Source: a virus
Taxonomy: Duplodnaviria; Heunggongvirae; Uroviricota; Caudoviricetes
DNA: 36,558 nt
IMG/VR virus record: IMGVR_UViG_2778261416_000006
Coordinates: 1 to 36,558 of that record
Strand: one strand, 5' to 3'
Shown here piece after piece: positions 274-22,641 of this stretch. Positions within the stretch are counted from its first letter, which is position 1. Each line of letters opens with the position of its first letter. Position numbers and translations under genes: made by a program. A model generated the notes under the pieces. It searched no databases. It saw only the letters and a list, made by a program, of their open reading frames with translations, and was not told where the DNA came from.

Positions 274-1112
274 CTGAAAGGCCCCTTCACGGTCAATGTG
301 TGGATCATTAGCATTGGCCCTGCGACTACTGATTTTAACATCTAGGGAAACGTAGCTGATGTTTGGCTTCGATAAGATTCTGTAGCACCGCCTCAGTGGG
401 GTTGTCAGAACATTCCGCTGCCGCCTTAAGAATATCGCTTACTAGAGATGAAACTGGTTGATTGTAATCCCGGTCGACCGTTACTCTATGTTTATCCGGA
501 TAATTTTGGCGTACACATTAAGTGAAGAAAACTTCAAAGTGATTTGAAACAGATGTTGTATTCACTGGCTCATTTACATTAACTTGAGTGTTGTTCAGCA
601 CATGTTGAAACGCAGCTGTAAGGAAGATGATACAGCCAAGATGTATCCTTCATTATGGGGATTGGCGCGATGACCACCACGGCTTAGCCCGATTGATTAT
701 TTGGAAATTGATTAGAATGCATAATCTGGGCTGAGCTCACTTAAAGTCTCTAATGTTTGACTTGGAGATTTGGGGGGCAGTGGCTTTCAGTTTTGTTAAC
801 TCTAACATCTGGTTTACGTTCCTTTTGGAACAAGAAGCAGAGGTCTGCTAAGTAATGGTTGTACTGCTTGTGATAGGTATGACTGCATGTTCAGCGAGCA
901 AGAATGGCTTAAAAGTTCTGTTACTGAGCACCCCATGAAGTTAGAACGATGTCATAACGTGCACGTAACCGTTGAACTGTTCTCTTACAGATAATCTCTA
1001 CATAGCTATTATTGCTTAGGCGGTAGCTATGTAGATGGTTTTTGTAATATTATATTAAAAGTTCATACAGCGACTATAGCATCATTGCGAAAAATATCAG
1101 GAGGTGAGTTTA

Positions 1113-2567
1113 ATGTTACGAAAAAGCAAACTTACAGAGATATATAAAAGGTTTGGTTTTACTGAAGAAAATACAGGTAACGAAAGTATTGCTGTATATT
1201 CTATTAAAACAGGGCACTACCATAACGCGGACATACTTCCACTAAATAATGAGGTTAATGTAAATCAAACCTTTGAAGAATATAGGCAGTTAGGTTATGC
1301 ATGTCAAATTAAAAAATATCAGTCTTATGAAGAAGCACATAAGGAATTATTTAATGGCTTCTTTAGCGTCGATTCAACTAAAGAAAGGTTGATTAAAGAT
1401 TATAATACTTTCACAGATTCAATTGTAAAAATTCACTCACCTACTGCAACTTATTCCTACATAAATTCAAAATATTACTTAAATGGTGTTATTGGCGAAG
1501 CTAATGTTGTTACGGAAATATTAGAGAGAATACAACATAGGCGTCCAATTCTGTTTTTGATTGAGGCTGCAGCCGGTTTTGGAAAGACTTGCACGGCGTA
1601 TGAATTATTGAGGGAGATTATAGTTAACAATATAGGGAAAATACCATTATTTTCAGAACTATCAAGGAATAGGCAAGCAAAAATATTCAGGTATGTACTA
1701 TTAGATGAAATTGATAGAAGTTTTCCTTTGTTAAGCTCAGCCTTAGTAAGGAATGAAATAAGAGCAGGAAATGTACCAGTTATACTTGACGGGTTTGATG
1801 AACTATTGCATGAAAGTACAAACGGAATTGAAAATAATTATGAAAAAACAGAGCCAATGCTGGAAATAATAAGTGAGCTTCTAACTGATAGTGCAAAAGT
1901 GGTTTTGACAACTCGAAGAACAGCTATATTTGACGGAGATGAATTCCATCAGTGGATAGCATCACATCAAGAAGATTTTGATGTGATAAGAATAAGAATT
2001 CATGAACCACAAATTGAAGACTGGCTTCCAGGTCAACGTTTAGATGAAATTTCATCGACAGGATTTCCTCTTAACAAATTATCAAACCCTGTACTGCTAT
2101 CATTTCTAAGATGCATCGACGACACCGACTTTAATAAAGTTATAAGCGACCCAACAACTATAGTGAGGAAGTATTTTGATTCAATGCTTGAGCGAGAAAG
2201 AAAAAGACAAGATTTATTAATGTCTATTGAAGATCAATATACTATACTAAAAATAATAGCTGACGACATGGTCGAGGGTAACTACACATCTGAGTCTAGA
2301 GAGTATATATCGTTAGTCATAACTGAAAAGAATCAACAACTCTTGGAGGCTACAAGAAAGCTTTATACTGTAGATGAAAGACCAACTACTGACGAATTAG
2401 TTAATAAATTAGCATCGCATGCTCTATTAGATCGGTCAGGCTCAGAAAACCAAGGTATTGGATTTGTTAATGAATTTGTTCTTGGTAATTTTGTTTCTGA
2501 AAATATTATTAATGATAAGTCAAATGAATGGATTGGTGATAAACGTTTTATAGAACCAGCAGTGTAA
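1113..2567 (+). CDS. NACHT-type STAND P-loop NTPase
   Basis: Walker A-like AAAGFGKT, Walker B VPVILDGFDELL (hhhhDGxDE) about 70 aa later, then VVLTTRR matching the NACHT hhhT[ST]R motif. AGGAGG at 1098-1103 precedes ATG 1113; track start 1104 is a GTG. AT-rich codon usage. Confidence 0.65.
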   Translation: MLRKSKLTEIYKRFGFTEENTGNESIAVYSIKTGHYHNADILPLNNEVNVNQTFEEYRQLGYACQIKKYQSYEEAHKELFNGFFSVDSTKERLIKDYNTFTDSIVKIHSPTATYSYINSKYYLNGVIGEANVVTEILERIQHRRPILFLIEAAAGFGKTCTAYELLREIIVNNIGKIPLFSELSRNRQAKIFRYVLLDEIDRSFPLLSSALVRNEIRAGNVPVILDGFDELLHESTNGIENNYEKTEPMLEIISELLTDSAKVVLTTRRTAIFDGDEFHQWIASHQEDFDVIRIRIHEPQIEDWLPGQRLDEISSTGFPLNKLSNPVLLSFLRCIDDTDFNKVISDPTTIVRKYFDSMLERERKRQDLLMSIEDQYTILKIIADDMVEGNYTSESREYISLVITEKNQQLLEATRKLYTVDERPTTDELVNKLASHALLDRSGSENQGIGFVNEFVLGNFVSENIINDKSNEWIGDKRFIEPAV

Positions 2568-2573
2568 TCTTAT

Positions 2574-3218
2574 ATGCCGAGGATCGATGATGAAAAAGAA
2601 TTACTTTGGCATAGCTTAGAGTTTGCTTTATATTTTATGTCAGGTAATGATAAAATCCTTTATAGTCATTTGCTTATAGGAAAAGTTCCATTAGATTTAA
2701 AAAATGATAGTGTTGAGCAATTGTCTATATCAAAACTTTCTTTAGGCGATATAAATATAATACATGATACTATCTTTGTTGATTGTTCGTTTTTTAGCAG
2801 CATATTTACCTGTGGTAATTATAAAAACGTTACATTCGTGAACTGTTCTTTTATAGATTGTAGTTTTAACGAATTAAGTGGTAGGGAAGATATTTATTTT
2901 TTGGGATGTGAATGTGACAATGATGCTATTAATAAAAAATCTGTCGAGATAAACAGTGAAAATGATCACGATATTACAGATTGTGATATTTACATCTTAG
3001 AGAAGTTCTGTCCCAGAGGGAGTGTTAGCTATCATAAGCATCGGCCTATAAAAGGCTTATGTTCTAACAACAATCAATTTCAGTTAAGTGAAATACTCCA
3101 TTCTTTAGATAAATTGAGGAAAGACGGTCTTTTACTTACGCCAGACAAGCGTTCGTTCCTTGAACTTAACATGGCAAGAATATCAGAGATTAAAGCAATT
3201 CTTGGGAGGAATTTCTGA
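2574..3218 (+). CDS. pentapeptide-repeat-like protein
   Basis: Seven consecutive 5-residue units with an aromatic at the same position (FVDCS FFSSI FTCGN YKNVT FVNCS FIDCS FNELS). Starts 7 nt after upstream stop; its stop overlaps the next start (TGATG at 3216-3220). Confidence 0.55.
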   Translation: MPRIDDEKELLWHSLEFALYFMSGNDKILYSHLLIGKVPLDLKNDSVEQLSISKLSLGDINIIHDTIFVDCSFFSSIFTCGNYKNVTFVNCSFIDCSFNELSGREDIYFLGCECDNDAINKKSVEINSENDHDITDCDIYILEKFCPRGSVSYHKHRPIKGLCSNNNQFQLSEILHSLDKLRKDGLLLTPDKRSFLELNMARISEIKAILGRNF

Positions 3219-4123
3219 TGTATAACGGGAATGAATTGCGAATTATTCAAAGTTTGCAAAAAGATATAGAAGATGAACTTAATCGTATTGGATTACTTTA
3301 TCGTTTTTTTTCGAGGACAAAATCAGAAAGCTCAATAATTAAGAAATATGAAAAAGAGCCTAATAAATACTCAGAGGATGGTAAAAAAATTCAAGACTTA
3401 TTTGGGGTTAGGATAATATTATATTTTCCTGATGATTTATTTATTGCTCAAAAAACACTGGAGAAATTATTCGAAATTGAATCTAAAACCGTAGACGAAA
3501 CCACGGCTAATCTCTTTGCGGCAACTCGATGCAATTACGTCTTTAAGTTACCAGAAGTATTATCAAATGATAGTGTCTTATTAAAGAAATATTCTTATAT
3601 TGATACTACTTTTGAAGTCCAATTTAGAACTATTTTATCTGAAGGATGGCATGAAGTTGAGCATGATCTACGCTATAAGTGCAAAGAGGATTGGGTTGAG
3701 CATAATGACCTTAGTCGCGCGCTGAATGGAATTTACGCCTCTTTGGAAACATCTGATTGGGGAATAATGAAGTTATTTGAGGATTTAGCATATAGAAATT
3801 ATAAGTCAAGCGCATGGTCCGCTATGCTAAGAAATAAATTAAGATTGAGAATGGACGATAAGCTTGATGAAAAGATAATTTCAATAATTAATGAGAAAGA
3901 GCTTGGTAAAAAGTTTTATAGAATTGACAGAGATCGTTTGTTATCGTTAATGTTAGATTATAATATTGATATACCAATTAATCTTAATAATATAATTTAC
4001 CTTTGTAATTATTTTTTCATAAAATCTACGGAGCTTCAGGATATAGCCCCTGCTTTAATAATGAAAAAGCTTACAGATGCTGATGAAAAATTCAATAAAA
4101 ATACTATTTTAGCATCTAAATAA
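3218..4123 (+). CDS. RelA/SpoT-like nucleotidyltransferase (synthetase fold), possible toxSAS-type effector
   Basis: N-terminal motifs typical of RelA/SpoT synthetase domain: SRTKSESSIIKKYEK (RxKxxxSxxxK), DLFGVRIILYFPDD (DxxGxRii), EVQFRTILSEGWHEVEHDLRYK (ExQxRT...W...H...YK). C-terminal 130 aa unassigned. Translationally coupled to upstream gene. Confidence 0.65.
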   Translation: MYNGNELRIIQSLQKDIEDELNRIGLLYRFFSRTKSESSIIKKYEKEPNKYSEDGKKIQDLFGVRIILYFPDDLFIAQKTLEKLFEIESKTVDETTANLFAATRCNYVFKLPEVLSNDSVLLKKYSYIDTTFEVQFRTILSEGWHEVEHDLRYKCKEDWVEHNDLSRALNGIYASLETSDWGIMKLFEDLAYRNYKSSAWSAMLRNKLRLRMDDKLDEKIISIINEKELGKKFYRIDRDRLLSLMLDYNIDIPINLNNIIYLCNYFFIKSTELQDIAPALIMKKLTDADEKFNKNTILASK

Positions 4124-4140
4124 TAACTATCTCCGGCTAT

Positions 4141-4170
4141 TAAGTAGGCCTTGTATTTTAGGCCTACTTA
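4141..4170. terminator. perfect 10-bp inverted repeat (taagtaggcc / ggcctactta) with 10-nt loop, putative operon terminator
   Basis: Read directly; lies 18 nt after the stop of the RelA/SpoT-like gene. No clean T-tract follows, so it could be a protein-binding palindrome instead. Confidence 0.35.
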
Positions 4171-5175
4171 AAAAGTTTCATTATGTGAAGTGATGATGAT
4201 AGCAAATCTGATATCTTTATGGTTGGATGCGAGAAAATATTTTTATCCCGACACAACAACTGGTAATGATAGAAAATTTAAACCCAAAAATGCTACAGTA
4301 GCCTCAGCTCACAAACGGAGTATAAAGTGGCGGTTACTCTTTAGTGGGAATACTGTAGATAGTTGATAAACTGGGCTGGATTTTCTTTTCTAACCGAAGG
4401 GAAGAAAAGCAAGGGGAACCCAAAGAAACAAGCGCAGCGGCTTCGTAGGGTTAGCCCTTGCTTCTTTTATAATTGGCATTATTCATTCAAGAACAATAGG
4501 ATCTTCGCTTGTACAAGCGAAGCTATAATAAAAAATCAATTAATTATTTTAAAAGTATTAAGCAAGAGCCTATTGACATTCGTAAAATAAAAGTTATTTT
4601 TAATGTATGCCATAAATAAAAAGTTTTATGTCATATGTATCCTGCACTATGTGCAGTTAATGTGCCACTTGTCCCATATATGGGAATATTGGAAAGGTTA
4701 CTTTGTTTTGAAGTAGCCTTTCGTCCTTCAATATTCACGATTACTTATTGCTATTACCAAGTCCAGTCGAATCGAAGAACATCTTTTATCTGAAACGACT
4801 CCTAATACCAGGTTGAAGCCACAATATCTCTCGCATAAGTAGACCAAAGAAAAATTATGATATTAACTATGTGATTTTTTTTAGTGTTAAGTTGAATAAT
4901 TATATACTGGAGAGTTTTCTGTACACTACCAATTGCTGGTTCATCTGTTCTGCCGCTGATGTTTCTGACTAATCTCCCGGTGACACAGAACTGTCCCTCT
5001 CTACCAGCCTTTATTCGACTCAATGTCCGGCTGCTGATACGCAGTTATCCCTTCGTATCAATGACTGACTCTTAAACGCAATGCTTTGGTTGCTGGCGTA
5101 TCTGACAGCTTCTTCGGCGTGAAGGTCGTTGTGTAAGTATACTTCTTGGTTTATTTAGGCTATATAAAACCATGA

Positions 5176-6072
5176 CTATGACTGGCTGTTTTCAGTAAGA
5201 GTCTTATCATCCAAAGAATTTATTCTAGAAATTCTTTTTAACTCATTAAGATAATCAACCTCGTTTTCTAAGAACCAATGAAGAACTTTAGAGTTGCCAA
5301 GTAATTTATTAATATATGACTGGATTATAACGAATTTCAACATATCTGAACCATACTCGGTTTGAAGTTTTTTCGTTTCTTCCGAAGTTGTTGCCATTTC
5401 TTGTTCCAGACGAAGTATGGTTTTTTTTATGTCCTTTTTATAGGGAGTGTTTTTCCCTTTATTTACTATCATCGATGACGGTGTTGCATCCAAGATGCTC
5501 ATTGCAAATTTTTTACTATAATTATCAAAATTAATCATTGTACCGACTGCTTCAATTTGACGAATTGGCTTCATTTTCCTCAAAACGTCAAATGTAGCCT
5601 TAGGTATAGGTTTATCAGAAAGTTTCGCAATTACACTTGGATCTATGCCGTTCATCACATTAGCTTTATCTTTTATGGCATCAACAGATATGCCCAAAGC
5701 AGCACTAAGTTTTTCAATTGATACTTTTGCCAGAGACTTAATTATCATTCTATGTTCTTCAACTACATTTATATGATTCACTTGTTTGTTAGGAGTGAAA
5801 GCATCATCTATGCTCGAAAGTATACATGGAGCTTTTTCTATATCTAAGTCTTTTAAAGCCTCAACCCTTAAATGGCCATCAAGTATCTTAGTGACATCTT
5901 TATCTTTGTCATAGAATACTATTATTGGTTCAATAATACCCAAGCTTTCGATAGAGGTAACTATTTGATGATATTTATGGCTTCGCTTTACGTTTTCTAA
6001 TAATTCCTTAGATGGAATTAACTTATTAGTTTCCAGGTAAATAAAATTTTTGCCAAAACGTATCTGAATCAT
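5176..6072 (-). CDS. ParB/sulfiredoxin-fold protein
   Basis: N-terminal ParB-like region with ILDGHLRVEAL (GxxRxxA-type box). ATG at 6072-6070; 4-nt overlap with upstream gene. AT-rich. Confidence 0.55.
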   Translation of the reverse strand: MIQIRFGKNFIYLETNKLIPSKELLENVKRSHKYHQIVTSIESLGIIEPIIVFYDKDKDVTKILDGHLRVEALKDLDIEKAPCILSSIDDAFTPNKQVNHINVVEEHRMIIKSLAKVSIEKLSAALGISVDAIKDKANVMNGIDPSVIAKLSDKPIPKATFDVLRKMKPIRQIEAVGTMINFDNYSKKFAMSILDATPSSMIVNKGKNTPYKKDIKKTILRLEQEMATTSEETKKLQTEYGSDMLKFVIIQSYINKLLGNSKVLHWFLENEVDYLNELKRISRINSLDDKTLTENSQS

Positions 6073-6965
6073 TTTGATACCTCTTTGTTTACTGGGTTTA
6101 ATATCTGAGATGGTAGTTCTGAAAGATTCTCTTGTTCAAGTATATTTTGAAAGCTTTTATTCATCATTATGATGTTAAAAATCTCATTTATTATTAGTAG
6201 ATTGGTTTTTATAAATTTCGAGTTGTTATAAACAGATTTATGTTCAGCGATACTATTTTCATAAAGCTCAATCAACTCCTCTGCAGTCATCCTTTTTGAT
6301 GGTTTGTGATAATAAAATCCGGCTGCTTTTGCACCTTTATTCCCAACTGTTCTTTGATTTAGAATGTATTTTATCTTTATAATGTCCCGACTTTTTATTA
6401 ATTTTTTATCATATGCTTCGGTAAGAATATCTTGTGCTTCCTCAGTTTCACATCTTGCAAATTGCACTGCGAGATACAGAGGCAAATTACCCCGTTCGAC
6501 TGCTGAGAGAAGTTTATGCTCTCCCTTATCAAGAAGCATATTAATACTGCTCACCCAGTTCGATGAATATCCAGTAATCTCACTTATTTCGGAGTCTGAA
6601 AGTCCTCTGATTTTCATGTCTTTAATCACCTGTAATAACTCATTAGAACGTGGTCTTCTCCTTGCAATGTTTTCAACTAAACTCATAACGTAAGCATCTT
6701 CTTCTGATACATCTCTTATAATTGCTGGAATAATAGTTTCACCTAATGCAACAAGAGCCTCTATTCTCCCTTGACCACAAATTAAAGCATATTTGAAATC
6801 GTCTTCATCAATAGCTCTTACGCTTATAGGCTTGCTTAATCCTCTTTTTTTTATGCTTTCCTTTATTTCTTCATGCACTACCTTATTTCTTGTTCGTGGG
6901 TTAAGAAATTTTATTTTTGCAATCTCAATTTGAATTATTGGGAATTCATTTTTTTCAGGCAGCAT
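6069..6965 (-). CDS. ParB-like protein with HTH
   Basis: ParB box-like CGQGRIEAL and LVENIARRRPR, followed by helix-turn-helix-like GLSDSEISEITGYSSNWVSSI. ATG at 6965-6963; overlaps recombinase gene end. Confidence 0.6.
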   Translation of the reverse strand: MLPEKNEFPIIQIEIAKIKFLNPRTRNKVVHEEIKESIKKRGLSKPISVRAIDEDDFKYALICGQGRIEALVALGETIIPAIIRDVSEEDAYVMSLVENIARRRPRSNELLQVIKDMKIRGLSDSEISEITGYSSNWVSSINMLLDKGEHKLLSAVERGNLPLYLAVQFARCETEEAQDILTEAYDKKLIKSRDIIKIKYILNQRTVGNKGAKAAGFYYHKPSKRMTAEELIELYENSIAEHKSVYNNSKFIKTNLLIINEIFNIIMMNKSFQNILEQENLSELPSQILNPVNKEVSK

Positions 6966-8511
6966 ATAGTTCCCTCACTTTCATGCGAGTAATAATTTGT
7001 AGAAATTTATCAAGATTATCAAATCTATAGAGATCTAACCGAATGTTGTTTGTTTCCATCATACACATTTTACTATATTCGTTTTCAATCTTTGGTATGA
7101 TATAAAAATCAAGAGGTGAAATATTTTGTGAATTCATTCGTATAACAATTGTTATGTCTGCTTTCTGTGAGTTATCAAACCGGACTTTCCATCTAAGTTT
7201 ACCTGATTTCATATGTATGCATTTAGTAACAAGGACGGAAATTAAAAACTCATCATTGATGTAAAGCATTGGGTAATATTTATACTCGTCTATATGACAG
7301 TTACTTTTTAATATTTCGCCCTTAAAATCCTCAATTATCTCTGAGTAAAATGATCTTAGTGCTTCATTTATTTGGAGATAGCTGTAATCATGTTCTGGCT
7401 TATAACCAATCAAAGTATATGCTCTTAAAAGACCACCAAATCGGGTTCTATAAACAGAAGATGAAGGGCCTGTATCATCTTCATCAATGATAAAGCCTGA
7501 TAGTTTTCCATTAGATTCTAATTTTTCTTTTAGCTTTTCTAATAGATCTTCATTAGTCAAATGAATGGATCGGAGCTGAATTATTTCTTGAGCTTTATTA
7601 TATTTTTTCTTTGAAATAATTGGTTTATATGCCTTGTCACATCTAATCCATTCATGTTTGGGGTTTTTTACAAGCTTACTTTTTAGTTTAGATGAGGTTT
7701 TGTTATATATGTTGTTTCCAATATATTTTTCATTTGTCAAAATTTGATGTATTTTTGCACGAGTCCATGATGTTCCATTTTCTGCAGGTATGCTCTGTTC
7801 ATTTAATCTCTCAGCAATAATGAATTCTGGGACGTTACTATCTATAAAGAGATCATAGATTCTATTTACAATTTTTATTTCATTTTTTGGTCCCGGAATT
7901 AATATTACCCTATCTGTTTGAATACTCTTTCTTTTGCGGAAATTCAATATTTCTTTAGCTATGCCATTTTCGTCTACTAAAAGACGTCTCAGCCCATAAC
8001 CAGCCATACCGCCTTGATGATAACCAAGCTTTATTAAATTTACTTGCCCTATAAATACCTTTTCAGATAGATTCCTGCTGTGATATGCAGCACTTGATCT
8101 TTTTATATTCAGTATAACAGAGGACTCTAAAGGGAAATCTTTAGTGGGTATAGGTTCGGAACAATATATAAGATCTACACCATTTCTTTCAAATAGAAAG
8201 GAATAATATGCAGCTTCATCACTATTTTGAAAACGACCAAAACGGCTCACATCATAAAATAATACAGCCTGTATATCTATTTTCTTTTGTTCTACATCGC
8301 TAAGTAACTGCTGCAAAGAATGCCTGCCTACGATACTGACTCCGCTCTTACCTGCATCATCGTAGGTATAAGCGATTTCCATATTGTTCTTTTCAGCATA
8401 ATCTTTGATATATTCAGACTGATTATGTAAAGAATATTGCTGATGGTCGGTAGACATCCTCAAGTACTGTGCGACCCTAACTCTATGATTTTTTTCATTT
8501 CCGCTAGCCAT
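6955..8511 (-). CDS. large serine recombinase
   Basis: N-terminal resolvase/invertase catalytic motifs: VAQYLRMSTDHQ (catalytic Ser), YDDAGKSG, LFYDVSRFGR. Length 518 aa fits the large serine recombinase class. Track start 8517 is TTG; ATG at 8511 is preceded by GAGG. Confidence 0.75.
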   Translation of the reverse strand: MASGNEKNHRVRVAQYLRMSTDHQQYSLHNQSEYIKDYAEKNNMEIAYTYDDAGKSGVSIVGRHSLQQLLSDVEQKKIDIQAVLFYDVSRFGRFQNSDEAAYYSFLFERNGVDLIYCSEPIPTKDFPLESSVILNIKRSSAAYHSRNLSEKVFIGQVNLIKLGYHQGGMAGYGLRRLLVDENGIAKEILNFRKRKSIQTDRVILIPGPKNEIKIVNRIYDLFIDSNVPEFIIAERLNEQSIPAENGTSWTRAKIHQILTNEKYIGNNIYNKTSSKLKSKLVKNPKHEWIRCDKAYKPIISKKKYNKAQEIIQLRSIHLTNEDLLEKLKEKLESNGKLSGFIIDEDDTGPSSSVYRTRFGGLLRAYTLIGYKPEHDYSYLQINEALRSFYSEIIEDFKGEILKSNCHIDEYKYYPMLYINDEFLISVLVTKCIHMKSGKLRWKVRFDNSQKADITIVIRMNSQNISPLDFYIIPKIENEYSKMCMMETNNIRLDLYRFDNLDKFLQIITRMKVRELYAA

Positions 8512-8793
8512 GCACAAAACCTCATGGATGATTCAATACAATGTAGAGGATAAAATTGATCAAATTTTAACCGAATTCAACTGTTTTATCATTGATTAGA
8601 GCGAATTTGGTAGTTCTTCGAGGTGTATGATAATCGAGAAGAGATGTGAATTATTTAGCTGATATGACCGACAGCTTTCGTTATGTGGCCTCAAGGTACC
8701 CATTTGTAAATGGCTATGCTTAGTCCACATAGGTTAATGGTGTGATCATTAATTCTTCAAATAAATCAAGATAGTTAACCCATCATGGAAGAG

Positions 8794-10023
8794 TTATGCG
8801 GCAATAACTTTGTATTTTTGAGACGAAACATAGTCACTCCACCATTGCATGAGAACCACACGTTCTGTGAGATACTCTGCACGATTGTAGGCTGCAATTA
8901 TTTCATCTTTTTTCGAGTGGGCAAGGGCGGCTTCTAAGACATCAGTTCTAAACTTGCCACACTCCTCAGCCGCCGTTCTAGCGATTGATCGCATACCATG
9001 AGCTACAAGCTCACCTCCGAAGCCCATACGGATTATAGCCGCATTAGCTGTTTGTTCATGCATGTGATTGAGTGGAGCTTTGATACTGGGAAAAACCCAC
9101 TCTCTATGCCCGCTGATGGCTTTCATTGAATCCAAGACTCGCAAAGATTCTTTGCTCAGTGGAACTTTGTGAGGCTTCTTCATTTTCATAAACTCCGCCG
9201 GGATGTTCCACATGCTGGTTTCTATATCAATATCTGACCATCTTGTGCGAACAGCTTCACCAGGGCGAACCCATGTGAGAAGTTGCCACTCAATCAGTAG
9301 CCTTGTTTCTAAACGGATAGAAGCATTGTTTAGAGCAACCAGGAAGCGGGGGAGTTCGGAAGGGGGTAATGCTGGCATATTCTGTTTTTTTGGCTTGCTG
9401 AACCGTTGCCCCAGGTTGTCAGCCGGATTGAATTCTATGAGTTCTTCTGTTGCTGCATAGCGGAAAATTTCATTCAGGCGGGATATGACGCGGCGAAGTG
9501 TTTCAAGGACACCTCGTTTTTCTATGGGGTCTAAATGCTGTTTAAGCATTTTAGGGCGAATCTCCTTAATGGGGGTATCACCCAACGTTGGAAAGATATT
9601 TCTCTCTAGGCTTCGCCAGATGTCGTTAGCATGATCCTGGGAGATGCCTGACGTTTTGACTTTCTCATCAAGCCACTTCTTGGCTACTGCTTGAAATGTA
9701 TGTTCCGTTGCATCCTTAAGGGCATTGGCTTTGTGGGTGTTATGAACTTGTGGGTCTATACCATTTGCAAGCAACGACAAGTACTCATCACGTAAAGCTC
9801 GTGCCTTCGCAAGTGTAAGGTGAGGATAGGTTCCTAAGCTCACCTTAGTTCGCTTTTTGGTCACAGGCACTGCATATCTGAAATACCAATTTTTCTTTCC
9901 TCCCTTCGCTAAGGGGGCGATTCGCAGGAGCAAACCATCGCCGTCAAAAAGGTTAACCTCTTTCTCGGCAGGTTTGGTGCTTTTGATTTCAGTGTCAGTG
10001 AGCTTCTTAGCGATTTTTGCCAT
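8794..10023 (-). CDS. P4-type tyrosine integrase (IntA/CP4-57-like)
   Basis: N-terminus MAKIAKKLTDTEIK and overall pattern resemble E. coli IntA as I recall it. C-terminal HGMRSIARTAA (HxxR) and AYNRAEYLTERVVLMQWW. Start placed at ATG 10023 rather than track start 10167. Confidence 0.8.
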   Translation of the reverse strand: MAKIAKKLTDTEIKSTKPAEKEVNLFDGDGLLLRIAPLAKGGKKNWYFRYAVPVTKKRTKVSLGTYPHLTLAKARALRDEYLSLLANGIDPQVHNTHKANALKDATEHTFQAVAKKWLDEKVKTSGISQDHANDIWRSLERNIFPTLGDTPIKEIRPKMLKQHLDPIEKRGVLETLRRVISRLNEIFRYAATEELIEFNPADNLGQRFSKPKKQNMPALPPSELPRFLVALNNASIRLETRLLIEWQLLTWVRPGEAVRTRWSDIDIETSMWNIPAEFMKMKKPHKVPLSKESLRVLDSMKAISGHREWVFPSIKAPLNHMHEQTANAAIIRMGFGGELVAHGMRSIARTAAEECGKFRTDVLEAALAHSKKDEIIAAYNRAEYLTERVVLMQWWSDYVSSQKYKVIAA

Positions 10024-10189
10024 GTTTGGGACCCTCATGTTTTGGACCCTTTGTGTTGGGTCCCAAAAAGGGTGCCATAACGAGTAGATTCTAGCAATTC
10101 TCGGTAGACTACTATAGACGTAAAAAAGCCCGCAAGGCTGGTTCCATGCGGGCTTGATAGACTTCACTGAACTTCAATATATCAAAAAT

Positions 10190-10218
10190 TGGTGGAGCTG
10201 GCGGGAGTTGAACCCGCG
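10190..10218 (-). repeat. ssrA: 29-nt copy of the 3' end of the tmRNA gene ssrA (attachment-site core)
   Basis: Minus strand reads CGCGGGTTCAACTCCCGCCAGCTCCACCA, matching the T-arm, 3' acceptor strand and CCA end of E. coli ssrA as recalled. Sequence beyond (10219 onward) is not ssrA. Lies about 165 bp from the integrase start. Confidence 0.7.
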
Positions 10219-10289
10219 TTCTTTTTACTTTATCTTTATGTTTTATAAGAGTTTTACAGGGCGCTGATACGATGCGTAGCTTTAACGGA

Positions 10290-11060
10290 TCTTTATTGCA
10301 GGATATATCCTAAAATGACTAGGCTGTGTCCCTTAATTACGTAACCGTTGATAAAAGAATCGGATGCAGCCAGTTTTAGCATCGCCAGATAATTTCTCGC
10401 CGTTTTGTCGTAACGCATAGCAATGCGGCGGTATTCTTTCAGGCGACCAAAACACCGTTCAACGACGTTGTGATTGCGATACGCATCACGATCAATCCGT
10501 GCACGTCCATCTGATGCCATTTTTTTCATTTGAGTTTCGGGGGATGATTGCCTTTATGCCTTTATTTTTCAGCTCGTTACGCGAACTAGCTTTCATGAGA
10601 CTGCCCGGGGCTTAGTACGATATTTAACGGGAGGCCGCTTCCGTCTGTTGCCAGATGGATTTTGGTGCCCAAACCGCCTCGAGAGCGACCCTGCCCATTA
10701 TCTCCGTCGATATTGGGATGTTTTTTTGAGCCCCGTCGGCGCATTTAAACGCCCGGATATTACTACCATTCAGCGCTGTGGCAGACCAGTCAACAAAGCT
10801 GTTCGCATCAAGTAGTGAAAGCAATCTGTTGAAAATGATGTTAATTACGCCTGACTTTGACCAACTGTTAAAGCGGTTATAAACGGTTTACCATGGCCCA
10901 TATCGTTCGGGTAAATCGCGCCATGGTGTGCCGGAACACAACACCAGAACATGCCATTGATGATTTTACGATGCTCTGCCCATGAGATACCTGCCCGTCG
11001 TGTGACAGGTTCTGGGGCAACAAGGGGGTGATGATGGTCTATACTTCATCGGGGAGGTCG
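10290..11060 (-). mobile_element. degraded IS5-family (IS427-like) transposase remnant
   Basis: Minus-strand translations give GRSRGGLGTKIHLATDGSGLPLNIVLSPGQSHES and DRDAYRNHNVVERCFGRLKEYRRIAMRYDKTARNYLAMLKLAA, typical of IS5-family DDE transposases, but split over several frames with in-frame stops. Boundaries approximate. Confidence 0.6.
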
Positions 11061-11324: not shown

Positions 11325-11894
11325 ATGAACCAGTGCACACAGTGGTTGGGGTATCATGGCACCAGTGTTTTATGTGCTAATTCAATCATTAATACAAATT
11401 TTAATGTCAGTAGACAAGAAAATGATTGGCTTGGTACCGGAGCCTATTTTTTCATTGAGTCGCCGGGATTGTTGGCCCCAGAAGAAAAAGCGGCTCAATG
11501 GGCTAACATTAGGGCTAGTAATGCGAGACCTAACTATACTAATCTAGCAGTGTTAGAAGCTACCATTGAAGTTGAGCAGTATCTTGACTTAGACAATGAT
11601 GAGCACATAGCCGCTCTCAACAAAGTGAGAGAGGTTTACATGGAAATCATGAAGTCTGAGGGTAAGAAACCAACTGGTAACAGATTGTTTGACAAATGCT
11701 GTTTTTGTAACTATGTAATGCATGAGCATGGTATTGACGCCCTGATACGTAAAGAGTATATCAAAACTACAAGAGAGGAGCTTGATTATGGTTTTGAAGG
11801 GGGAGTTCCTAACTGCAGAGTCTTATGCGTTAAAGACCCTAAAGCGAGTGTTAAGTCCATACGATTCGCGGTCGAGAGAAGGAGAGTACGATGA
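11325..11894 (+). CDS. putative ADP-ribosyltransferase-fold (H-Y-E class, PARP/DarT-like) toxin candidate
   Basis: YHGTSVLCANSIINTNF followed by WLGTGAYFF resembles the HG[ST]...GxGxYF signature of H-Y-E ADP-ribosyltransferases; assignment by eye only. AT-rich; stop overlaps next start (ATGA). Confidence 0.45.
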   Translation: MNQCTQWLGYHGTSVLCANSIINTNFNVSRQENDWLGTGAYFFIESPGLLAPEEKAAQWANIRASNARPNYTNLAVLEATIEVEQYLDLDNDEHIAALNKVREVYMEIMKSEGKKPTGNRLFDKCCFCNYVMHEHGIDALIRKEYIKTTREELDYGFEGGVPNCRVLCVKDPKASVKSIRFAVERRRVR

Positions 11895-12256
11895 ACATCA
11901 ATTTATGGCTCGAAAAGACCTTGGACTCTATAAGGTCAACTGATCCGAAAGCTCTCATGGTGAGGATGGAGCGGTATGGATTGATTGAAGATGATGTTAA
12001 TAAAAATAAGGAAATGTCTCATTCTGGTTATGAATATACAGTTTGTGAGGATCTTCCTAGAGAGGTTCCTTTTGCGTCCTATTTTTTCATTGATAACGCT
12101 TCGTATCATGAAGAATCTATAAATGCTTTATCCGTGCAGTTGACTTTCACAACAGCGCCGCGTGAAGCGGCGTTTTCATTGGCTTCACGTCCAGTGTTTT
12201 ATACATCAGAGATTGCTTGTGGAAATTCTCTGGATCATATTGCCCAGGCTGCTTAA
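11891..12256 (+). CDS. hypothetical protein, candidate antitoxin or adaptor
   Basis: ATG 11891 preceded by AAGGAG; coupled to flanking genes. No motif recognised. Confidence 0.45.
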   Translation: MNINLWLEKTLDSIRSTDPKALMVRMERYGLIEDDVNKNKEMSHSGYEYTVCEDLPREVPFASYFFIDNASYHEESINALSVQLTFTTAPREAAFSLASRPVFYTSEIACGNSLDHIAQAA

Positions 12257-12257
12257 T

Positions 12258-12644
12258 ATGAAATTTCAATTAAATAAGAATCAAATAGAAAAGTTAAGTA
12301 TTGAACATTTTATAAATGAATCATCTATTAAAAACAGTTTTTCATTTTCACATACATGCAAGTATGATGAAGAAAAGAATAATGAGTTTATCATTTCTTT
12401 TAAATTTGAACTTACATCTGACAATGGTTTTAAACTTATTTTTACGCATAATTTCTTTTTTGAATGCGATGAACCAATTACAGAAGAGTTTTTACAGTCA
12501 CATTACACATCAGTGAACGCTCCTGCTATTGCCTATCCTTATGTAAGAGCATTTGTGGCAACATTACTTTTAAACGCAGGCTTAGAGTCTGTTTTATTGC
12601 CTGCTGTTAATTTTGTTGAGCATGCTAAATCGCAAGATAAATGA
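12258..12644 (+). CDS. SecB-like chaperone
   Basis: C-terminal AIAYPYVRAFVATLLLNAGLESVLLPAVNF parallels SecB [30 protein letters not shown]. ATG sits 1 nt after upstream stop; the track ORF 12162-12644 is treated as an N-terminal over-extension. Confidence 0.6.
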   Translation: MKFQLNKNQIEKLSIEHFINESSIKNSFSFSHTCKYDEEKNNEFIISFKFELTSDNGFKLIFTHNFFFECDEPITEEFLQSHYTSVNAPAIAYPYVRAFVATLLLNAGLESVLLPAVNFVEHAKSQDK

Positions 12645-12649: not shown

Positions 12650-12674
12650 ATGAGAGCAAATAAATTGCTCTCAT
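12650..12674. terminator. bidirectional hairpin terminator between convergent genes
   Basis: 9-bp stem atgagagca / tgctctcat with 7-nt loop, flanked by A-run upstream and T-rich downstream; overlaps integrase stop codon. Confidence 0.5.
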
Positions 12675-13840
12675 TTATACATGATATCATTTATGGTATT
12701 TTCGTTATCGTACTCTTTTAAATATCTTCCATAATGCCTAAATAGCATTTCTGGTCCTTTATGTCCCATTTGTCCAGCAAGCCAAAATAGGTTCGCCCCT
12801 TGACTGATATGGCGAGTAGCGAATGTGTGTCTCGTTTGATATGGATTACGGTATCTGATTCCTGCTTTTCTCAATATTGGCACCCATGCTTTTTTCCTAA
12901 TTGCATCAGCACTTGCCCAGGGTTTATTGGTCTTTGGATCTTCAAAGACAGTAGCATTCTTTATGAATGTAAATGGCTTCTGGTTTATCAACGCCAACAT
13001 TGCTTCTTCAGTCAGTTCAACTTTACGGGTACCGGCTTTTGTCTTTGTTCCTTTGATAACTCCGACAACACTTGCGCTCTGAACATGGGCTGTTTTTCCA
13101 ACAAAGTCGATATCATGCCATCGTAGGGCACATAATTCAGAACTACGCAGGCCTGTATGTATGGCGAACCGGAACAGATTTTCCCATTGTTTGTTTCCGG
13201 CTGCTGCTAGTAATGCATCAACTTCTGCTGGTGATAGCGGATCAACTAAGTAGCTGCTTTCTGCTTCTGACTTATCACTTTGGTAGCGCGAAGCTGTTAC
13301 TAACGATACGGGGTTAATTTGAAGTACCCCATCGGTCACGGCTTCATCAAGTGCTGACCGCAGGAAAGATAACTGGTTGCGAATGGTTTTTAAGGTCGTT
13401 TTCTGGCTTTGAATCCACGCTTTCAGGGTTGCTGGTGTTAATTCACTTGCAGGGCAAATGTGAAGTGAGGCTAACGCACTACGGCATTTTTTATAACCAC
13501 CGATCGTGGATGGTGAAAGTTTCCTCGTTTCGCAGATTTCAAGATATTCGTCTAGGTACATTTTTACCGTTTTGCCAGCGGCAGCATTACCAAAAATTTT
13601 CAAACGAGCAGAACGGGGAAAATATTCTGCATAAATGAATGTTCCCCTTTCGATCTTATTATGGATTTCGCCGAGTGTACGCTCGGCGTATTTAATGTTC
13701 TTTGGTGTTACTTCCAGATTGGAAAGCGGCTCACGACATCTAACTCCTTTGTAGGTGAAAGTTATATTGATCGTTTCTCCTTGGCGGTGTTTCCTGATTG
13801 TTACGCCGCGCGGTAGTTTGAGCAGTTTTGTCTGGCCCAT
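12671..13840 (-). CDS. lambda-type tyrosine integrase
   Basis: C-terminal catalytic region RHTFATRHISQG (HxxR) and MLFRHYGRYL (Tyr); N-terminal arm-binding-like region. ATG at 13840. Confidence 0.85.
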   Translation of the reverse strand: MGQTKLLKLPRGVTIRKHRQGETINITFTYKGVRCREPLSNLEVTPKNIKYAERTLGEIHNKIERGTFIYAEYFPRSARLKIFGNAAAGKTVKMYLDEYLEICETRKLSPSTIGGYKKCRSALASLHICPASELTPATLKAWIQSQKTTLKTIRNQLSFLRSALDEAVTDGVLQINPVSLVTASRYQSDKSEAESSYLVDPLSPAEVDALLAAAGNKQWENLFRFAIHTGLRSSELCALRWHDIDFVGKTAHVQSASVVGVIKGTKTKAGTRKVELTEEAMLALINQKPFTFIKNATVFEDPKTNKPWASADAIRKKAWVPILRKAGIRYRNPYQTRHTFATRHISQGANLFWLAGQMGHKGPEMLFRHYGRYLKEYDNENTINDIMYK

Positions 13841-14007: not shown

Positions 14008-14066
14008 ATGTTTCTCCACTTAGCCCGCTGCACACGGGCAGTAATATCAAATTTCAGTCCTGATAA

Positions 14067-14282
14067 TTAATTTTGTTCTCTGGTTGCTACCTGTTTAATT
14101 GGCCTGATGCTGTCCAGGAGCAGTCGGCGGCGCGTATTTTCTGCAAAGTGGCGGCGTCCGGTTTCTTTGTGGTAAAACTCGTTTTTTCCGACGACCCACA
14201 TCCGCTTTGTCTGGTGCAGTTTTTTTACCTGCGGACCGTTTCGGGTAATAACAATTCCTGTATGAGTTTTTATCACGCTCAT
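14067..14282 (-). CDS. phage early protein, function unknown
   Basis: ATG-initiated ORF coupled to the upstream gene; position corresponds to yfdT in the CPS-53 yfdP-Q-R-S-T order. Confidence 0.45.
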   Translation of the reverse strand: MSVIKTHTGIVITRNGPQVKKLHQTKRMWVVGKNEFYHKETGRRHFAENTRRRLLLDSIRPIKQVATREQN

Positions 14283-14641
14283 TTCTTATTCTCCGGTGCT
14301 TTCGGCATTACTGCCCAGTGAGTGATATTGACGTTTTCAAGGTCCCCGACCTGAAATGTCCACTGCCATTCTCCGGTTTCTTTTTGTCCCCAGGTGTACC
14401 AGAGAGAACGCCAGCCAATTAGCCAGCCTTCTCCGTTAGCATCAAATAACAGAACACTTTCATTTGCAGGTGGCAGTTCAGCTGACACTGGTATTATTTT
14501 GTTTTCCAGTGCCGCACATTTAGCTTCAAGCGCGTCGAATTTACGTACCAGGTACTCAGCATTTGTTTCGTTCACTTTCAGATCTCGCGGTACACATTTC
14601 CCGCGAAGAAACCCTTCCATTTCGAAAACATTCATGCGCAT
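14279..14641 (-). CDS. phage early protein (YfdS-like), function unknown
   Basis: 120 aa, same size and position as yfdS in CPS-53 as recalled; coupled to flanking genes. Confidence 0.5.
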   Translation of the reverse strand: MRMNVFEMEGFLRGKCVPRDLKVNETNAEYLVRKFDALEAKCAALENKIIPVSAELPPANESVLLFDANGEGWLIGWRSLWYTWGQKETGEWQWTFQVGDLENVNITHWAVMPKAPENKK

Positions 14642-15168
14642 TTGCGTAACTCCGATAACTCGTTAAAACGTTCCATAAACATCCCATAGGCATGGCCCGG
14701 TGCCAGTGGAATAACTTTGAACATATCTGTTGCCGGGATACCTTCCAGTACAGGCCAGAAAGAGCCATCATCAAGCCCGAGATCGCGGCGTTCAGTTGCC
14801 AGCATGATGAGATCGGCATATTTCACGGGCGTGCTCATAACCGGGGGTAACCCGTATTTCTCACGGATTACGGCGTCTATTTTTTCTTCCATCCGTTTAT
14901 AGTCAGGAAGAAGGCGTTTCAGTGGAGCGGGAATATCCTGGCAATACGCTTCTGTTGCATCATGCATTAACGCTTCAAAAGCAAATTCCTGCGGTACCAG
15001 TTGGCTGCAAAGCACCGCATGTTGGGCGACGCTGTAGAAGTGTGAAAGATGTCCTGCAAAGCGACAGATATTTGAAAGGGAAACCGCGATATCGTTAATA
15101 ACGATGTCGTCTTTATTTATCTTGTCATAATAAAAATGCTTCCCGGAAAAAGTTTTAATAAATGACAT
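14632..15168 (-). CDS. HD-domain phosphohydrolase (YfdR-like 5'-deoxynucleotidase)
   Basis: HD signature LSNICRFAGH ... EALMHDATEAY. ATG 15168 preceded by GGAG gives 178 aa; track start 15195 is a GTG. Confidence 0.7.
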   Translation of the reverse strand: MSFIKTFSGKHFYYDKINKDDIVINDIAVSLSNICRFAGHLSHFYSVAQHAVLCSQLVPQEFAFEALMHDATEAYCQDIPAPLKRLLPDYKRMEEKIDAVIREKYGLPPVMSTPVKYADLIMLATERRDLGLDDGSFWPVLEGIPATDMFKVIPLAPGHAYGMFMERFNELSELRKCA

Positions 15169-15295
15169 TTTGTTCTCCACGTATATGCGCTGCACCGCGC
15201 TGAATTCTGGTAAAAGGAAGCCCTCACCATCCGGCGATTATTGAGTAAATTATGTTTCCATAAATGCCCCCGCAGGGGCATTTGCAGTAATGAAA

Positions 15296-16120
15296 TCAGG
15301 CGGTGAAAGTACCAATAAAGGTTTCTACTTTGCTGTCTTTAAATTTCTCAACAAGCAGATCACGAAATTCGTTAGCCATTTCTTCCTGCACCGCTTCCAG
15401 CTGAATAATGCGCAGAACCAGTACAGGACGATCGCCAGTGATAATGCTGAGGCGTAATTTAAACGGACGTTCTTTCAGGCCTTCAAACGGAACGCATTTA
15501 AATTCAAATGCCACTGGCATAATGTCTTTGGTCTTCGCTTCGACAGACTCCATCAGGGAGCGTTTGCCGCTGAAGTCATTGTCTTCAAAATCAGCGGTCT
15601 GGTTCGCTTCAATTGTGATTTTACGGATCGCCGCAGCCGCTTTGGTTGCCTGAATGGCGTCACCATTAGCATCAAAGCCCACAAGGTAGTCGGCCCAGTC
15701 TTCAATCCATTCTGCCAGTGACTTTTGGGAGTTACGCTCGCCATTAACAGACAACAGAGCAGAGAACGGTGCTGTCTTTTTCAGTTTGAGAGTGGCGGTG
15801 TTATCTGCGTGACCTGGTTCATCAATAGTACCCAGGTTAAGCACACTGACGGCACGCATATTATCGGCATCGATAAAGCAGCGGGTGCCTTCATCTGCAA
15901 GATCTTTAGAATAACGGGTAAAGTCATCGATGCTGGCAGTGGAAAGCGCACCACGGAAACGGAAGCGATTTAAATTAAATTTTTCCAGATCATGAATGCG
16001 GAAATTCTCAGGCAATGCCACAGCATCGGCACCAATCTTACTGATAATTTCATTAACACCCTGAGCAGAAATAAGGGCATGGATTTGATTAATTGCGGTT
16101 GCGTCTAAGTTCTGAGACAT
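15296..16120 (-). CDS. YfdQ-like prophage protein, function unknown
   Basis: 274 aa, ATG with GAGGA upstream; size and neighbours match yfdQ of CPS-53 as recalled. Confidence 0.55.
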
Positions 16121-16185
16121 AATAAGTCCTCACTATATAAAGATATTCAGTGATGAGATAAATAATCAGTTAATTAAGAACGATA

Positions 16186-16548
16186 TTAATGACCTGCTGC
16201 GCGTAGTTTTCCGTCAGGTTCACCGGCAAGAGTCAGTAATTGTCCCTGGTCTTCCTGCAGAATAGTCAGGCGACCACCGCGATTGACATACATCGGTGTT
16301 TCGGTGGTGTCTTCTTCGGAAATTTTCCCGCGGTTAGTCGGGCGAACATATGAGAGTTTGTGTTTGATTTTCACACGGTTCTCATCAAATGGTTCGATTT
16401 CCAGGTTGAGCGAGACCTTACCTTTGGTTTTCGTGTTCATCACACCGGAAGCGACTTCACTGAGAACTGCGCCGATTTTGGTTTCAAATACGCCGCCGTC
16501 CAGCTCCCCGATAAATGCCTGCACATCAGTACTGCGTTCGCTAGCCAT
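16186..16548 (-). CDS. YfdP-like prophage protein (120 aa)
   Basis: Start placed at ATG 16548 (MASERSTDVQ...) preceded by GAGGAG; the track N-terminal extension to 16734 is Cys/Arg-rich and unlikely to be coding. Confidence 0.5.
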   Translation of the reverse strand: MASERSTDVQAFIGELDGGVFETKIGAVLSEVASGVMNTKTKGKVSLNLEIEPFDENRVKIKHKLSYVRPTNRGKISEEDTTETPMYVNRGGRLTILQEDQGQLLTLAGEPDGKLRAAGH

Positions 16549-17201
16549 TTTGCTGCTCCTCATCATATCGACCCTGCAAGGTCGGTTAGTTTCTCCACAA
16601 AACAGAGAAGAACACCTGCGGTGGCAGCCGCCCGGATGGATTGGGTTATGAGCCCGTCGTCCGGTGATGCTCTTCTCTGTTTTGTAAAAAGAGCGGTACC
16701 AGCCGGAAGCAAGTGTACAAACTGGTACCGCCAAAGCAGTGGCTGTTGTGGTGACCGGTGCTGATCTCCGGCTTGCGGTTATTTCAGACTCTCACGGGCG
16801 TTTAATTGCCCCGCCGAACAGCTCTTTTCCGCAATAGCTGCAATGTCTTTCGCGCATCAGCCTGCGCATTCACCACAACGCTGAGAGCACTTAGCCAGTT
16901 ACGGCACCACACTTTGTCGCGGTTCCATAAATGCCCTCATCGTTGCACCCTGGTCTCTTCCCAGGCGTCAAACCGAATCGCCACGCTGGTTAGGCGTCTT
17001 ATCAGCATCATCATTGACTTGCACATTCCGGCTACCTGGTTTGTTTGCCCGAGCAAGGAGTGGATTGTCCCCTTTAACGTCACCAGACCGCTAACGACGC
17101 ATGTGCCATACGCCGTGTTACAACCAAATTTTGTTTTAATCTTGCCTGTAACATGTTTCTTTTAGATACATTATGTATCTCAAGGGTACATTGTCAAGTA
17201 T

Positions 17202-17223
17202 AAAAAAACCTGCCGAAGCAGGT
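17202..17223 (-). terminator. rho-independent terminator after the repressor gene
   Basis: Hairpin cctgc cgaa gcagg followed on the minus strand by a 7-nt T-run, 13 nt after the CI-like stop. Confidence 0.5.
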
Positions 17224-17235
17224 TATAAATATTGA

Positions 17236-17910
17236 TTAGGCCTTTATTTTGTATCTTCTTGGTTTTCCTGAGAAAATTACTGTACCAATTATAGAGCAAT
17301 TACCGTTGATCTTAATGTAAGGTTCAGGCCAGTTTGGGTTTAATGCTTTGAGGTAACGCTGTGTTCCATCTTCTATCAACCGCTTAAAGGTGGTTTCGCC
17401 TGTATCGTGCATCAATGCAATAACGTCGTCACCGTGGCAGGCAGGGACTTCAGGATCTACAAAAATCATGTCTCCCGGGCGGTACTCATCAATCATTGAA
17501 TCACCAATCACCCGCAAGATATAAGTCATTTCGCCACAGGGTACAGGGCAGGGATAAGTTTCTGCTGTGCTCAAATCAACCTCAGAATAGCCAACTTCTT
17601 TCCATGCTCCGGCCTGTACCCATGATATGACAGGGACTAACGTTATTTGTTTGTTAGTGATTGAAACATCAGGTTTTTTTGTGATGTTCGTGGTCTGGTG
17701 TTCTTGATCAAGCCATCCGACAGGCAGGTCGAAACATTTTTCAATGTGCCTTGCCATGCTGTCACCGATATTTTTAGTAGCACCATCTCCCATAAACCTG
17801 CTGGTCTGGGTTGGCTCGCGATCAATCATGGTGGCAAAGGAAGAATTCCCGCCAACACCATCTCTCAGTTTTCTGGCGTTAGACCGCCGGATGTCATGGA
17901 CTGTTTTCAT
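17236..17910 (-). CDS. CI-like phage repressor (HTH plus S24 LexA-type peptidase domain)
   Basis: C-terminal VIGDSM (catalytic Ser) and TFKRL (Lys) motifs; N-terminal DNA-binding region; divergent from the Cro-like gene. Confidence 0.8.
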   Translation of the reverse strand: MKTVHDIRRSNARKLRDGVGGNSSFATMIDREPTQTSRFMGDGATKNIGDSMARHIEKCFDLPVGWLDQEHQTTNITKKPDVSITNKQITLVPVISWVQAGAWKEVGYSEVDLSTAETYPCPVPCGEMTYILRVIGDSMIDEYRPGDMIFVDPEVPACHGDDVIALMHDTGETTFKRLIEDGTQRYLKALNPNWPEPYIKINGNCSIIGTVIFSGKPRRYKIKA

Positions 17911-18000
17911 AAAGAAATTAAAACCTTTGTACCGATAAGGTACAAGTATCTTGAAGGTTCATCTTAATCATGTAATATGTATATCGGAGGTACATATTGT
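17911..18000. promoter_or_regulatory. immunity switch region with operator-like palindromes
   Basis: 19-bp palindrome TTGTACCgataaGGTACAA at 17927-17945 and TACAtatTGTA at 17990-18000 between the divergent CI and Cro genes. A similar palindrome AGATACAttATGTATCT lies at 17164-17180. Confidence 0.4.
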
Positions 18001-18201
18001 ATGAAAGCGTATTGGGACTCTTTAACCAAAGAACAGCAGGGCGAGTTGGCCGGAAAAGTTGGCTCAACACCAGGCTACTTACGGCTGGTTTTCAATGGTT
18101 ATAAAAAAGCCAGTTTTGTGCTGGCTAAAAAACTTGAGCAATGCACGTCAGGTGCAATTACGAAATCTGACTTAAGACCGGATATCTATCCGAAAGATTA
18201 A
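18001..18201 (+). CDS. Cro-like HTH regulator
   Basis: 66 aa from ATG 18001 with GGAGG about 10 nt upstream; divergent from the repressor. Confidence 0.6.
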   Translation: MKAYWDSLTKEQQGELAGKVGSTPGYLRLVFNGYKKASFVLAKKLEQCTSGAITKSDLRPDIYPKD

Positions 18202-18232
18202 CAGAACACCTTCAATTTTTAACCACAGAACG

Positions 18233-18796
18233 ATGAGGCTAACCGTGGGTAAGCATCACTGGAAAGTAGAAAAACAGCCTGAGTGGTACCTGAAAGCTGT
18301 CAGAAAAACTATCGCGGCGTTGCCGGGGGGTTACGCTGAAGCTGCTGAGTGGCTGGATGTAACAGAGAACGCTTTATTCAACCGCCTTCGTGCAGATGGC
18401 GATCAGATTTTCCCGCTGGGATGGGCAATGATTTTACAGCGCGCGGCTGGCACTCACTACATTGCGGATGCTGTCGCACAGTCTGCTGGTGGGGTGTTTG
18501 TATCGCTTCCTGAAATTGAGGAAGTAGAGAACGCCGATATAAACCAGCGCCTGCTGGAAGTCATCGAACAGATCGGGAGTTACTCAAAGCAGATTCGTTC
18601 GGCAATCGAAGATGGGGTAGTGGAGCCACACGAGCAGACAGCAATTAATGATGAGTTGTATCTGTCAATTTCGAAGCTCCAGGAGCATGCAGCACTGGTC
18701 TACAAAATCTTTTGCGCTCCAGAAAAGAGTGACGCCCGCGAGTGTGCAGCTCCGGGCGTCGTGGCGTTTTGTGTCTGTGGAGAAACTAACGCATGA
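18233..18796 (+). CDS. CII-like phage regulatory protein (YmfL-like)
   Basis: Position right of Cro and size similar to e14 ymfL; assignment by synteny and weak recall. Start may be GTG 18245. Confidence 0.4.
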   Translation: MRLTVGKHHWKVEKQPEWYLKAVRKTIAALPGGYAEAAEWLDVTENALFNRLRADGDQIFPLGWAMILQRAAGTHYIADAVAQSAGGVFVSLPEIEEVENADINQRLLEVIEQIGSYSKQIRSAIEDGVVEPHEQTAINDELYLSISKLQEHAALVYKIFCAPEKSDARECAAPGVVAFCVCGETNA

Positions 18797-20673: not shown

Positions 20674-20688
20674 TTATGAGTCTTTTGA

Positions 20689-21772: not shown

Positions 21773-21791
21773 TTAAGAGGAGAAACGAAGT

Positions 21792-22634: not shown

Positions 22635-22641
22635 GGTGACC

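Follow-up and report, generated by a model that had tools for sequence, protein, structure and literature searches.

Stacking of integrative elements at the tmRNA gene, ssrA, is ordinary and already well described, as illustrated by CP4-57 and by the Islander arrays. The classic description of such arrays at ssrA is reportedly that given by Williams in 2003 (J Bacteriol, 'Traffic at the tmRNA gene'). In E. coli K-12, CP4-57 carries the integrase gene intA and is bounded by an attL site in ssrA and by an attR site equivalent to psaA, and its excision was reported to delete T357 of ssrA, inactivating tmRNA (PMC10107115). Tandem arrays at tRNA and tmRNA genes form a category recognised by Islander, with the tmRNA gene as the most enriched target (PMC4383910), and ssrA is also a listed integration site of lambdoid (Stx) phages (PMC8065619). 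The record of a free phage, Escherichia phage LLS (PQ299149), annotates a 'tmRNA pseudogene' together with an attP site downstream of int; this attP joins the 3' end of ssrA to a segment of ~140 nt that is similar to the native downstream DNA of the gene and ends in a terminator.

The DNA considered here, hereafter the window, is the whole stretch of 36,558 nt that was analysed (IMG/VR virus record IMGVR_UViG_2778261416_000006, positions 1 to 36,558). It very probably represents an E. coli ssrA hotspot occupied by two stacked integrative elements, an island and a lambdoid prophage, with a fragment of ssrA as their shared att junction (Table 1). The window strand is opposite to that of ssrA, the two elements are arranged head to tail, and the window contains two tyrosine integrases that are unrelated to one another.

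Table 1. Coordinates of the features of the window, numbered from its first base
Feature	Position	Strand	Basis or remark
Inner part of the ~20.5-kb ssrA island	1..8793	.	99.98% identity to NCTC9100 over 10,219 nt
NACHT gene of the island	1113-3218	+	Interrupted by TAA at 2565-2567
RelA/SpoT-domain gene of the island	3218-4123	+	
Two ParB genes of the island	5176-6965	-	
Large serine recombinase of the island	6955-8517	-	Pfam Resolvase and Recombinase domains
P4/IntA-type tyrosine integrase of the island, 409 aa	8794..10023	-	Pfam, NCBIfam, identity to IntA
Island-supplied DNA directly downstream of the ssrA end	10024..10189	-	Same sequence behind intact ssrA in L001 and L006
Displaced ssrA 3' fragment, 30 nt (T-arm, 3' acceptor strand, ACCA)	10190..10219	-	Alignment, tmRNA model
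AT-rich phage-side arm beside the core	10220..10332	-	Identical in >10 prophage copies with differing downstream neighbours
IS5-family transposase remnant, in the prophage cargo region	10333..11035 (about)	-	RefSeq annotation, Pfam fragments
Three-gene cargo (189 aa, 121 aa, SecB-like 128 aa)	11325..12644	+	PADLOC, Pfam SecB
Tyrosine integrase of the prophage, 389 aa, Arm-DNA-bind_2 type	12671..13840	-	Pfam
Excisionase of the prophage, 68 aa	13801..14007	-	88% to putative LLS excisionase
Remainder of the defective lambdoid prophage	14008..36558	.	PHROGs
CI-like repressor	17236-17910		PHROGs
Truncated pin invertase remnant	about 34223-34596		
RnlA/RnlB toxin-antitoxin pair	34615-36151		
89-aa gene	36289-36558		ATG exactly at window end

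The displaced ssrA end and the island integrase

The 29-mer TGGTGGAGCTGGCGGGAGTTGAACCCGCG has a single exact occurrence in the window, on the + strand at 10190-10218. The initial annotation had taken it for a copy of the ssrA 3' end that lies about 165 bp upstream of a P4-type integrase in the arrangement of CP4-57 at ssrA, with the rest of ssrA absent on the other side, and each part of this reading was borne out. Alignment with RefSeq-annotated ssrA genes identified the 29-mer as the reverse complement of the ssrA 3' end and lengthened the exact identity by one base, to 30 of 30 nt (10190-10219), a match that spans the whole T-arm, the 3' strand of the acceptor stem and ACCA. A permissive Rfam scan aligned the bases of the fragment alone with the 3'-terminal part of the tmRNA model, at 29 bits (gathering score 47), and neither ARAGORN nor an Rfam search at the gathering level found a tmRNA gene in the window. 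The fragment is a stub, and the remainder of ssrA is absent from the window.

A search for more copies of the 29-mer, also proposed in the initial annotation, was run on the window and gave none besides that at 10190-10218. No second copy of TGGTGGAGCTGGCGGGAGTTGAACCCGCG with up to three mismatches was present in the window, shorter versions (a 15-mer with two mismatches and the 13-mer delta-T form) revealed no further copy there, and none of 100 dinucleotide-preserving shuffles contained a match. The permissive Rfam scan also gave a match to IsrM (42 bits, gathering score 376), but this hit is the terminator hairpin and was not accepted as an sRNA.

The integrase gene next to the fragment lies on the same strand as the fragment and starts with the ATG at 10023, leaving a measured gap of 166 nt to the repeat. 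Its product is the same protein as RefSeq WP_001384082.1, and an open reading frame that reaches 10167 is an upstream GTG extension of the gene. The protein contains the Pfam domains Arm-DNA-bind_3, Phage_int_M and Phage_integrase, and scores 445 bits against NCBIfam NF007246/PRK09692 (cut-off 434). Over 401 aa, its identity to K-12 IntA is 49%, and the RPxEA, HGxRS and AYNR motifs align. Its position and orientation relative to ssrA agree with those of CP4-57.

Within the gap is an intrinsic terminator (stem at 10126-10155, followed by a T-run), which serves ssrA where the island is directly attached to the gene and is orphaned in the window. Three TTTGGGACCC-like repeats at 10021-10072, two direct and one inverted, straddle the start codon of the island integrase. 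In K-12, an analogous trio of TAGGCCCA-like repeats is found upstream of intA in CP4-57, and both sets may represent binding sites for Int or for a regulator.

Junctions in other genomes and in a free phage

Tandem elements at a single hotspot had been suggested from the window alone, and the same architecture was found in two complete genomes, P13-6 and 23AR1101. The layout in P13-6 is smpB, ssrA, prophage, 30-nt fragment and the same island as in the window, while that in 23AR1101 is ssrA, a 39-kb prophage, the 30-nt fragment and a CP4-57-like island, the int-end cargo of this prophage being that of the window. Both the outer fragment and the intact tDNA of an Islander-type array are present in genomes with this architecture.

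Junctions were compared among P13-6, 23AR1101 and other loci, together with ten more contigs that carry the cargo gene of the window. An identical phage arm and core were followed by seven distinct sequences: the native flank where the prophage occurs alone, the CP4-57 flank, the island of the window, two further islands of P4 type, a P2-like prophage and a P4-like satellite. All of these junctions break right after CCACCA, and the phage arm begins exactly 30 nt before that point. Because both edges were constant across the seven flanks, the 30-nt length is a property of the phage attP, and the fragment owes its length to the prophage and not to the island. Furthermore, the 30 nt are the sole sequence that is shared with ssrA as completed by the island and, thus, the phage crossover presumably took place within them. 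The fragment is therefore a junction common to both elements, being for the prophage its int-proximal att site and for the island the att site on the ssrA side.

The exact junction of island flank, core and phage arm was absent from 5,426 complete E. coli genomes. The same genome search returned 5,426 places in 5,168 genomes, with up to four in a genome, showing that extra copies of the ssrA end are not rare. In lysogens of this prophage family, the native-like flank seen in the LLS attP was found behind the intact ssrA gene, which indicates that the phage supplies a new ssrA end and terminator. In five genomes, the ATG of the 89-aa gene of the window and the ssrA 3' end are exactly 300 nt apart, and the sequence between them is a phage-type flank. 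By synteny, an intact ssrA gene would be expected ~300 nt beyond the right end of the window, at about 36859-37221 on the minus strand.

The ssrA island

In many E. coli genomes, the DNA directly next to intact ssrA has 99.98-100% identity to positions 1-10219 of the window. Such DNA is present at loci L001 and L006, the latter being that of NCTC9100, from which the window differs by two SNPs in 10,219 bases. One of these SNPs is a C-to-T change that converts CAA to TAA at 2565-2567 and splits the 701-aa NACHT gene into 1113-2567 and 2574-3218. The NCTC9100 island is ~20.5 kb in length, extends from ssrA to beside ypjA, and carries genes for an integrase, a serine recombinase, two ParB proteins, a RelA/SpoT-domain protein, a NACHT protein, a DUF4928 protein, an ankyrin-repeat protein and a relaxase. 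By comparison with this genome, the island would be expected to run ~10.3 kb beyond window position 1, with the relaxase and other genes in that part, and the element looks like a relaxase-bearing mobilisable island and not like a CP4-57-like cryptic prophage.

At the far end of the NCTC9100 island, the sequence reads CGCCAGC-CCACCA and continues with ATCATGATTGGACGG..., in agreement with the published T357 deletion. This 13-nt delta-T remnant, which lacks T357, and its flank beside ypjA are the same in the NCTC9100 island and at psaA, the CP4-57 end in K-12 (L006 9722-9734 and L007 23473-23486). Their occurrence with unrelated occupants suggests that one old displaced ssrA end was reused or retained as the occupants changed. 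No delta-T distal remnant was found inside the window, and synteny would place the far-end repeat of the island ~10 kb to the left of window position 1. The length of the 29-mer had also been considered as the core of the island itself, a candidate that was rejected on the grounds that the distal repeat of the island in relatives is ~13-14 nt and that the 30-nt boundary does not vary where the phage arm is concerned.

The prophage and its cargo

The DNA from 10220 onward is a lambdoid prophage with its own integrase and excisionase. An IS remnant and a lambdoid prophage had been noted on this side of the repeat from the outset, and both were recovered, the one through DDE_Tnp_1 and DDE_Tnp_1_2 fragments that are disrupted by frameshifts and stops, and the other through PHROGs matches. 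RefSeq annotates the same IS5 remnant in a 98%-identical stretch of 23AR1101. The prophage integrase is 85% identical to the Int protein of phage LLS and 90% identical to that of phiNP, with no meaningful similarity to IntA, and the layout of the LLS and phiNP type is present in the window, with the core at 10190-10219 followed by cargo at 10333-12644 and then by int.

The third protein of the cargo matched PADLOC PD-T4-9_C (3.7e-35) and Pfam SecB, and the first matched PD-T4-9_A weakly (0.007); the 189-aa and 121-aa proteins had no match in Pfam, NCBIfam or PDB. The three genes look like a toxin-antitoxin-chaperone defence system that resembles PD-T4-9, with a diverged first component.

The interval that separates the att core from the 3' terminus of the phage int gene (window 10220-12670) is a variable cargo slot in this prophage family, located elsewhere at L002 22220-23688, L028 5177-6053 and L029 5171-6958. 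The slot is occupied by DarTG in P13-6, by an AAA ATPase in phiNP and by a single unknown gene in LLS, while other genomes have STAS-like genes, an AAA ATPase plus RloB, or hypothetical genes. A cargo swap also exchanges roughly the last 58 nt of int, and the phage-side arm beside the core differs among cargo variants.

Further into the prophage, PHROGs matches identified CI-like, CII-like, O-like, RusA, Q-like and endolysin genes, followed directly by baseplate and tail-fibre genes. Relative to the 23AR1101 prophage, ~12.5 kb from terminase to tape measure is missing, and the absent genes are those for terminase, portal, protease, capsid, connectors, sheath, tube and tape measure; at about 26217-27113, the lysis genes are followed almost at once by a baseplate hub/DNA circularization gene. 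Judged by its gene content, the prophage is defective, with an incomplete virion module. Rfam matches at the gathering level were obtained on the + strand for isrK (19153-19229) and C4 antisense RNA (19254-19341), inside or overlapping an open reading frame for a 278-aa regulator (18793-19629) in the early-right region. At the right end, the module formed by the truncated pin gene, RnlAB and the 89-aa gene is found again at the termini of siphovirus-type lambdoid prophages that occupy several other att sites. An exact-protein look-up gave no identical copy of the window RnlA, and in K-12, rnlAB is situated inside CP4-57, at the same chromosomal locus.

Alternative explanations

A possible, although rather unlikely, alternative is that the array was assembled by homologous recombination, through transduction or conjugation and RecA, between strains with different ssrA occupants, and that the fragment was simply inherited. 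The same phage end does occur with many neighbours, the same island occurs with different cargo variants of the prophage, and both the ~140-nt native-like flank and the 30-nt core provide homology for such exchanges. However, all junctions fall precisely on the ssrA 3' end and the 30-nt boundary, a pattern characteristic of site-specific events at some stage in the past, and reassortment would alter the recent history only, not the identity of the fragment. It is improbable that one or more further elements, such as a second prophage remnant that owns the module of truncated pin, RnlAB and the 89-aa gene, lie between the window and ssrA, giving an array of at least three elements. This would fit with the resemblance of that module to siphovirus-type lambdoid prophage ends at several other sites and with the finding of up to four ssrA-end copies per genome, but the 89-aa gene stands exactly 300 nt from ssrA with phage-type flank between them in five of the ten matches listed, and 10220-36558 contains neither an extra ssrA fragment nor a third integrase. 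The recurrence of the module at other sites also makes a rearrangement between the window end and ssrA conceivable.

Two other readings concern the origin of the fragment itself. That it is the stump of a real ssrA gene left by an IS5-mediated deletion, the locus then having no functional tmRNA gene, is very improbable: an IS5-family remnant does lie ~115 nt from the fragment and the window contains no tmRNA gene, yet the remnant does not abut the fragment, the identical breakpoint and AT-rich arm are present in more than ten genomes in which ssrA is intact or other flanks follow, and the attP of the free phage LLS is built in the same way. A chance or tRNA-derived resemblance that has nothing to do with ssrA can be given hardly any weight, as the short length of the 29-mer is all that favours it, against a 30/30 match to ssrA, 0/100 shuffles, a hit to the tmRNA model at its 3' end, and flanks identical to those of genuine ssrA junctions.

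Proposed history and its possible consequence for ssrA

Sequential integration of the two elements is the simplest history. The ~20.5-kb P4/IntA-type island would have sat directly on ssrA at first and would have provided the terminal bases of ssrA together with a terminator. The next arrival would have been a lambdoid phage with an integrase of the LLS/phiNP type, its attP made up of ~30 nt from the 3' end of ssrA, a native-like downstream flank of ~140 nt and a terminator; this site would have recombined with the last 30 nt of the regenerated ssrA gene. As a result, ssrA would have gained a phage-borne 3' end and terminator, now beyond the window, while its old 3' end and the orphaned terminator of the island would have been stranded between the int end of the prophage and the integrase of the island. 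The upstream edge of the fragment would thus have been fixed by the phage attP and its downstream edge, right after CCACCA, by the island. This order of events is inferred, as is the view that either element may still be able to excise.

A more tentative proposal, less probable than the history itself, is that the prophage insulates ssrA, such that the order of the elements may decide whether a tmRNA 'rescue switch' exists. Where the island or CP4-57 sits directly on ssrA, its excision would join the gene to the delta-T357 remnant, inactivating tmRNA. If the prophage separates the island from ssrA, the recombination that excises the island would involve only the stranded 30-nt fragment and the remnant, leaving the phage-completed ssrA gene unaffected, and the delta-T lesion would reach ssrA only upon later excision of the prophage. 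Prophage excision would rejoin ssrA to ATTTTTGATATATTG.... If this is true, tandem insertion uncouples excision of the island from the known ssrA-inactivating delta-T357 switch.

Comparison with known systems

The main value of the locus is for annotation, in that the fragment gives the exact boundaries of two mobile elements and illustrates that a repeat need not belong to the integrase closest to it. The locus is a further case of the ssrA hotspot gathering interchangeable elements with defence genes, and it opens no new question.

Like CP4-57, the island has a P4-type integrase just downstream of ssrA and co-oriented with it, supplies the ssrA 3' end and terminator, and in its NCTC9100 copy has the same delta-T357 remnant beside ypjA. 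The integrases are, however, only 49% identical, megablast detected no DNA similarity to CP4-57, and the island has a cargo of its own, with a serine recombinase, two ParB genes, NACHT and RelA/SpoT genes and a relaxase. In contrast to CP4-57, the window island no longer touches a functional ssrA gene.

The prophage shares with LLS and with Citrobacter phage phiNP its integrase (85-90%) and excisionase (88%), a syntenic int-xis early-left region with yfdP/yfdQ/yfdR-like genes, and the arrangement in which attP consists of the ssrA 3' end and native-like flank and a cargo slot lies between int and attP. It differs from these phages in its cargo, which comprises the IS5 remnant and the system resembling toxin-antitoxin-chaperone modules, in the loss of ~12.5 kb of head and tail genes, and in the separation of the two attP-derived halves as prophage junctions, only one of which is inside the window. 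The Stx-converting and other lambdoid prophages at ssrA have a lambdoid backbone of regulatory, replication and lysis genes in common with the window, in which no stx genes were seen and the tail module is Mu-like (baseplate hub/DNA circularization protein). From the tandem arrays of Islander there is no essential difference: the outer fragment and intact tDNA would here lie beyond the window and, as in those arrays, two elements with their own integrases occupy one tDNA, with a co-oriented 3' fragment between them.
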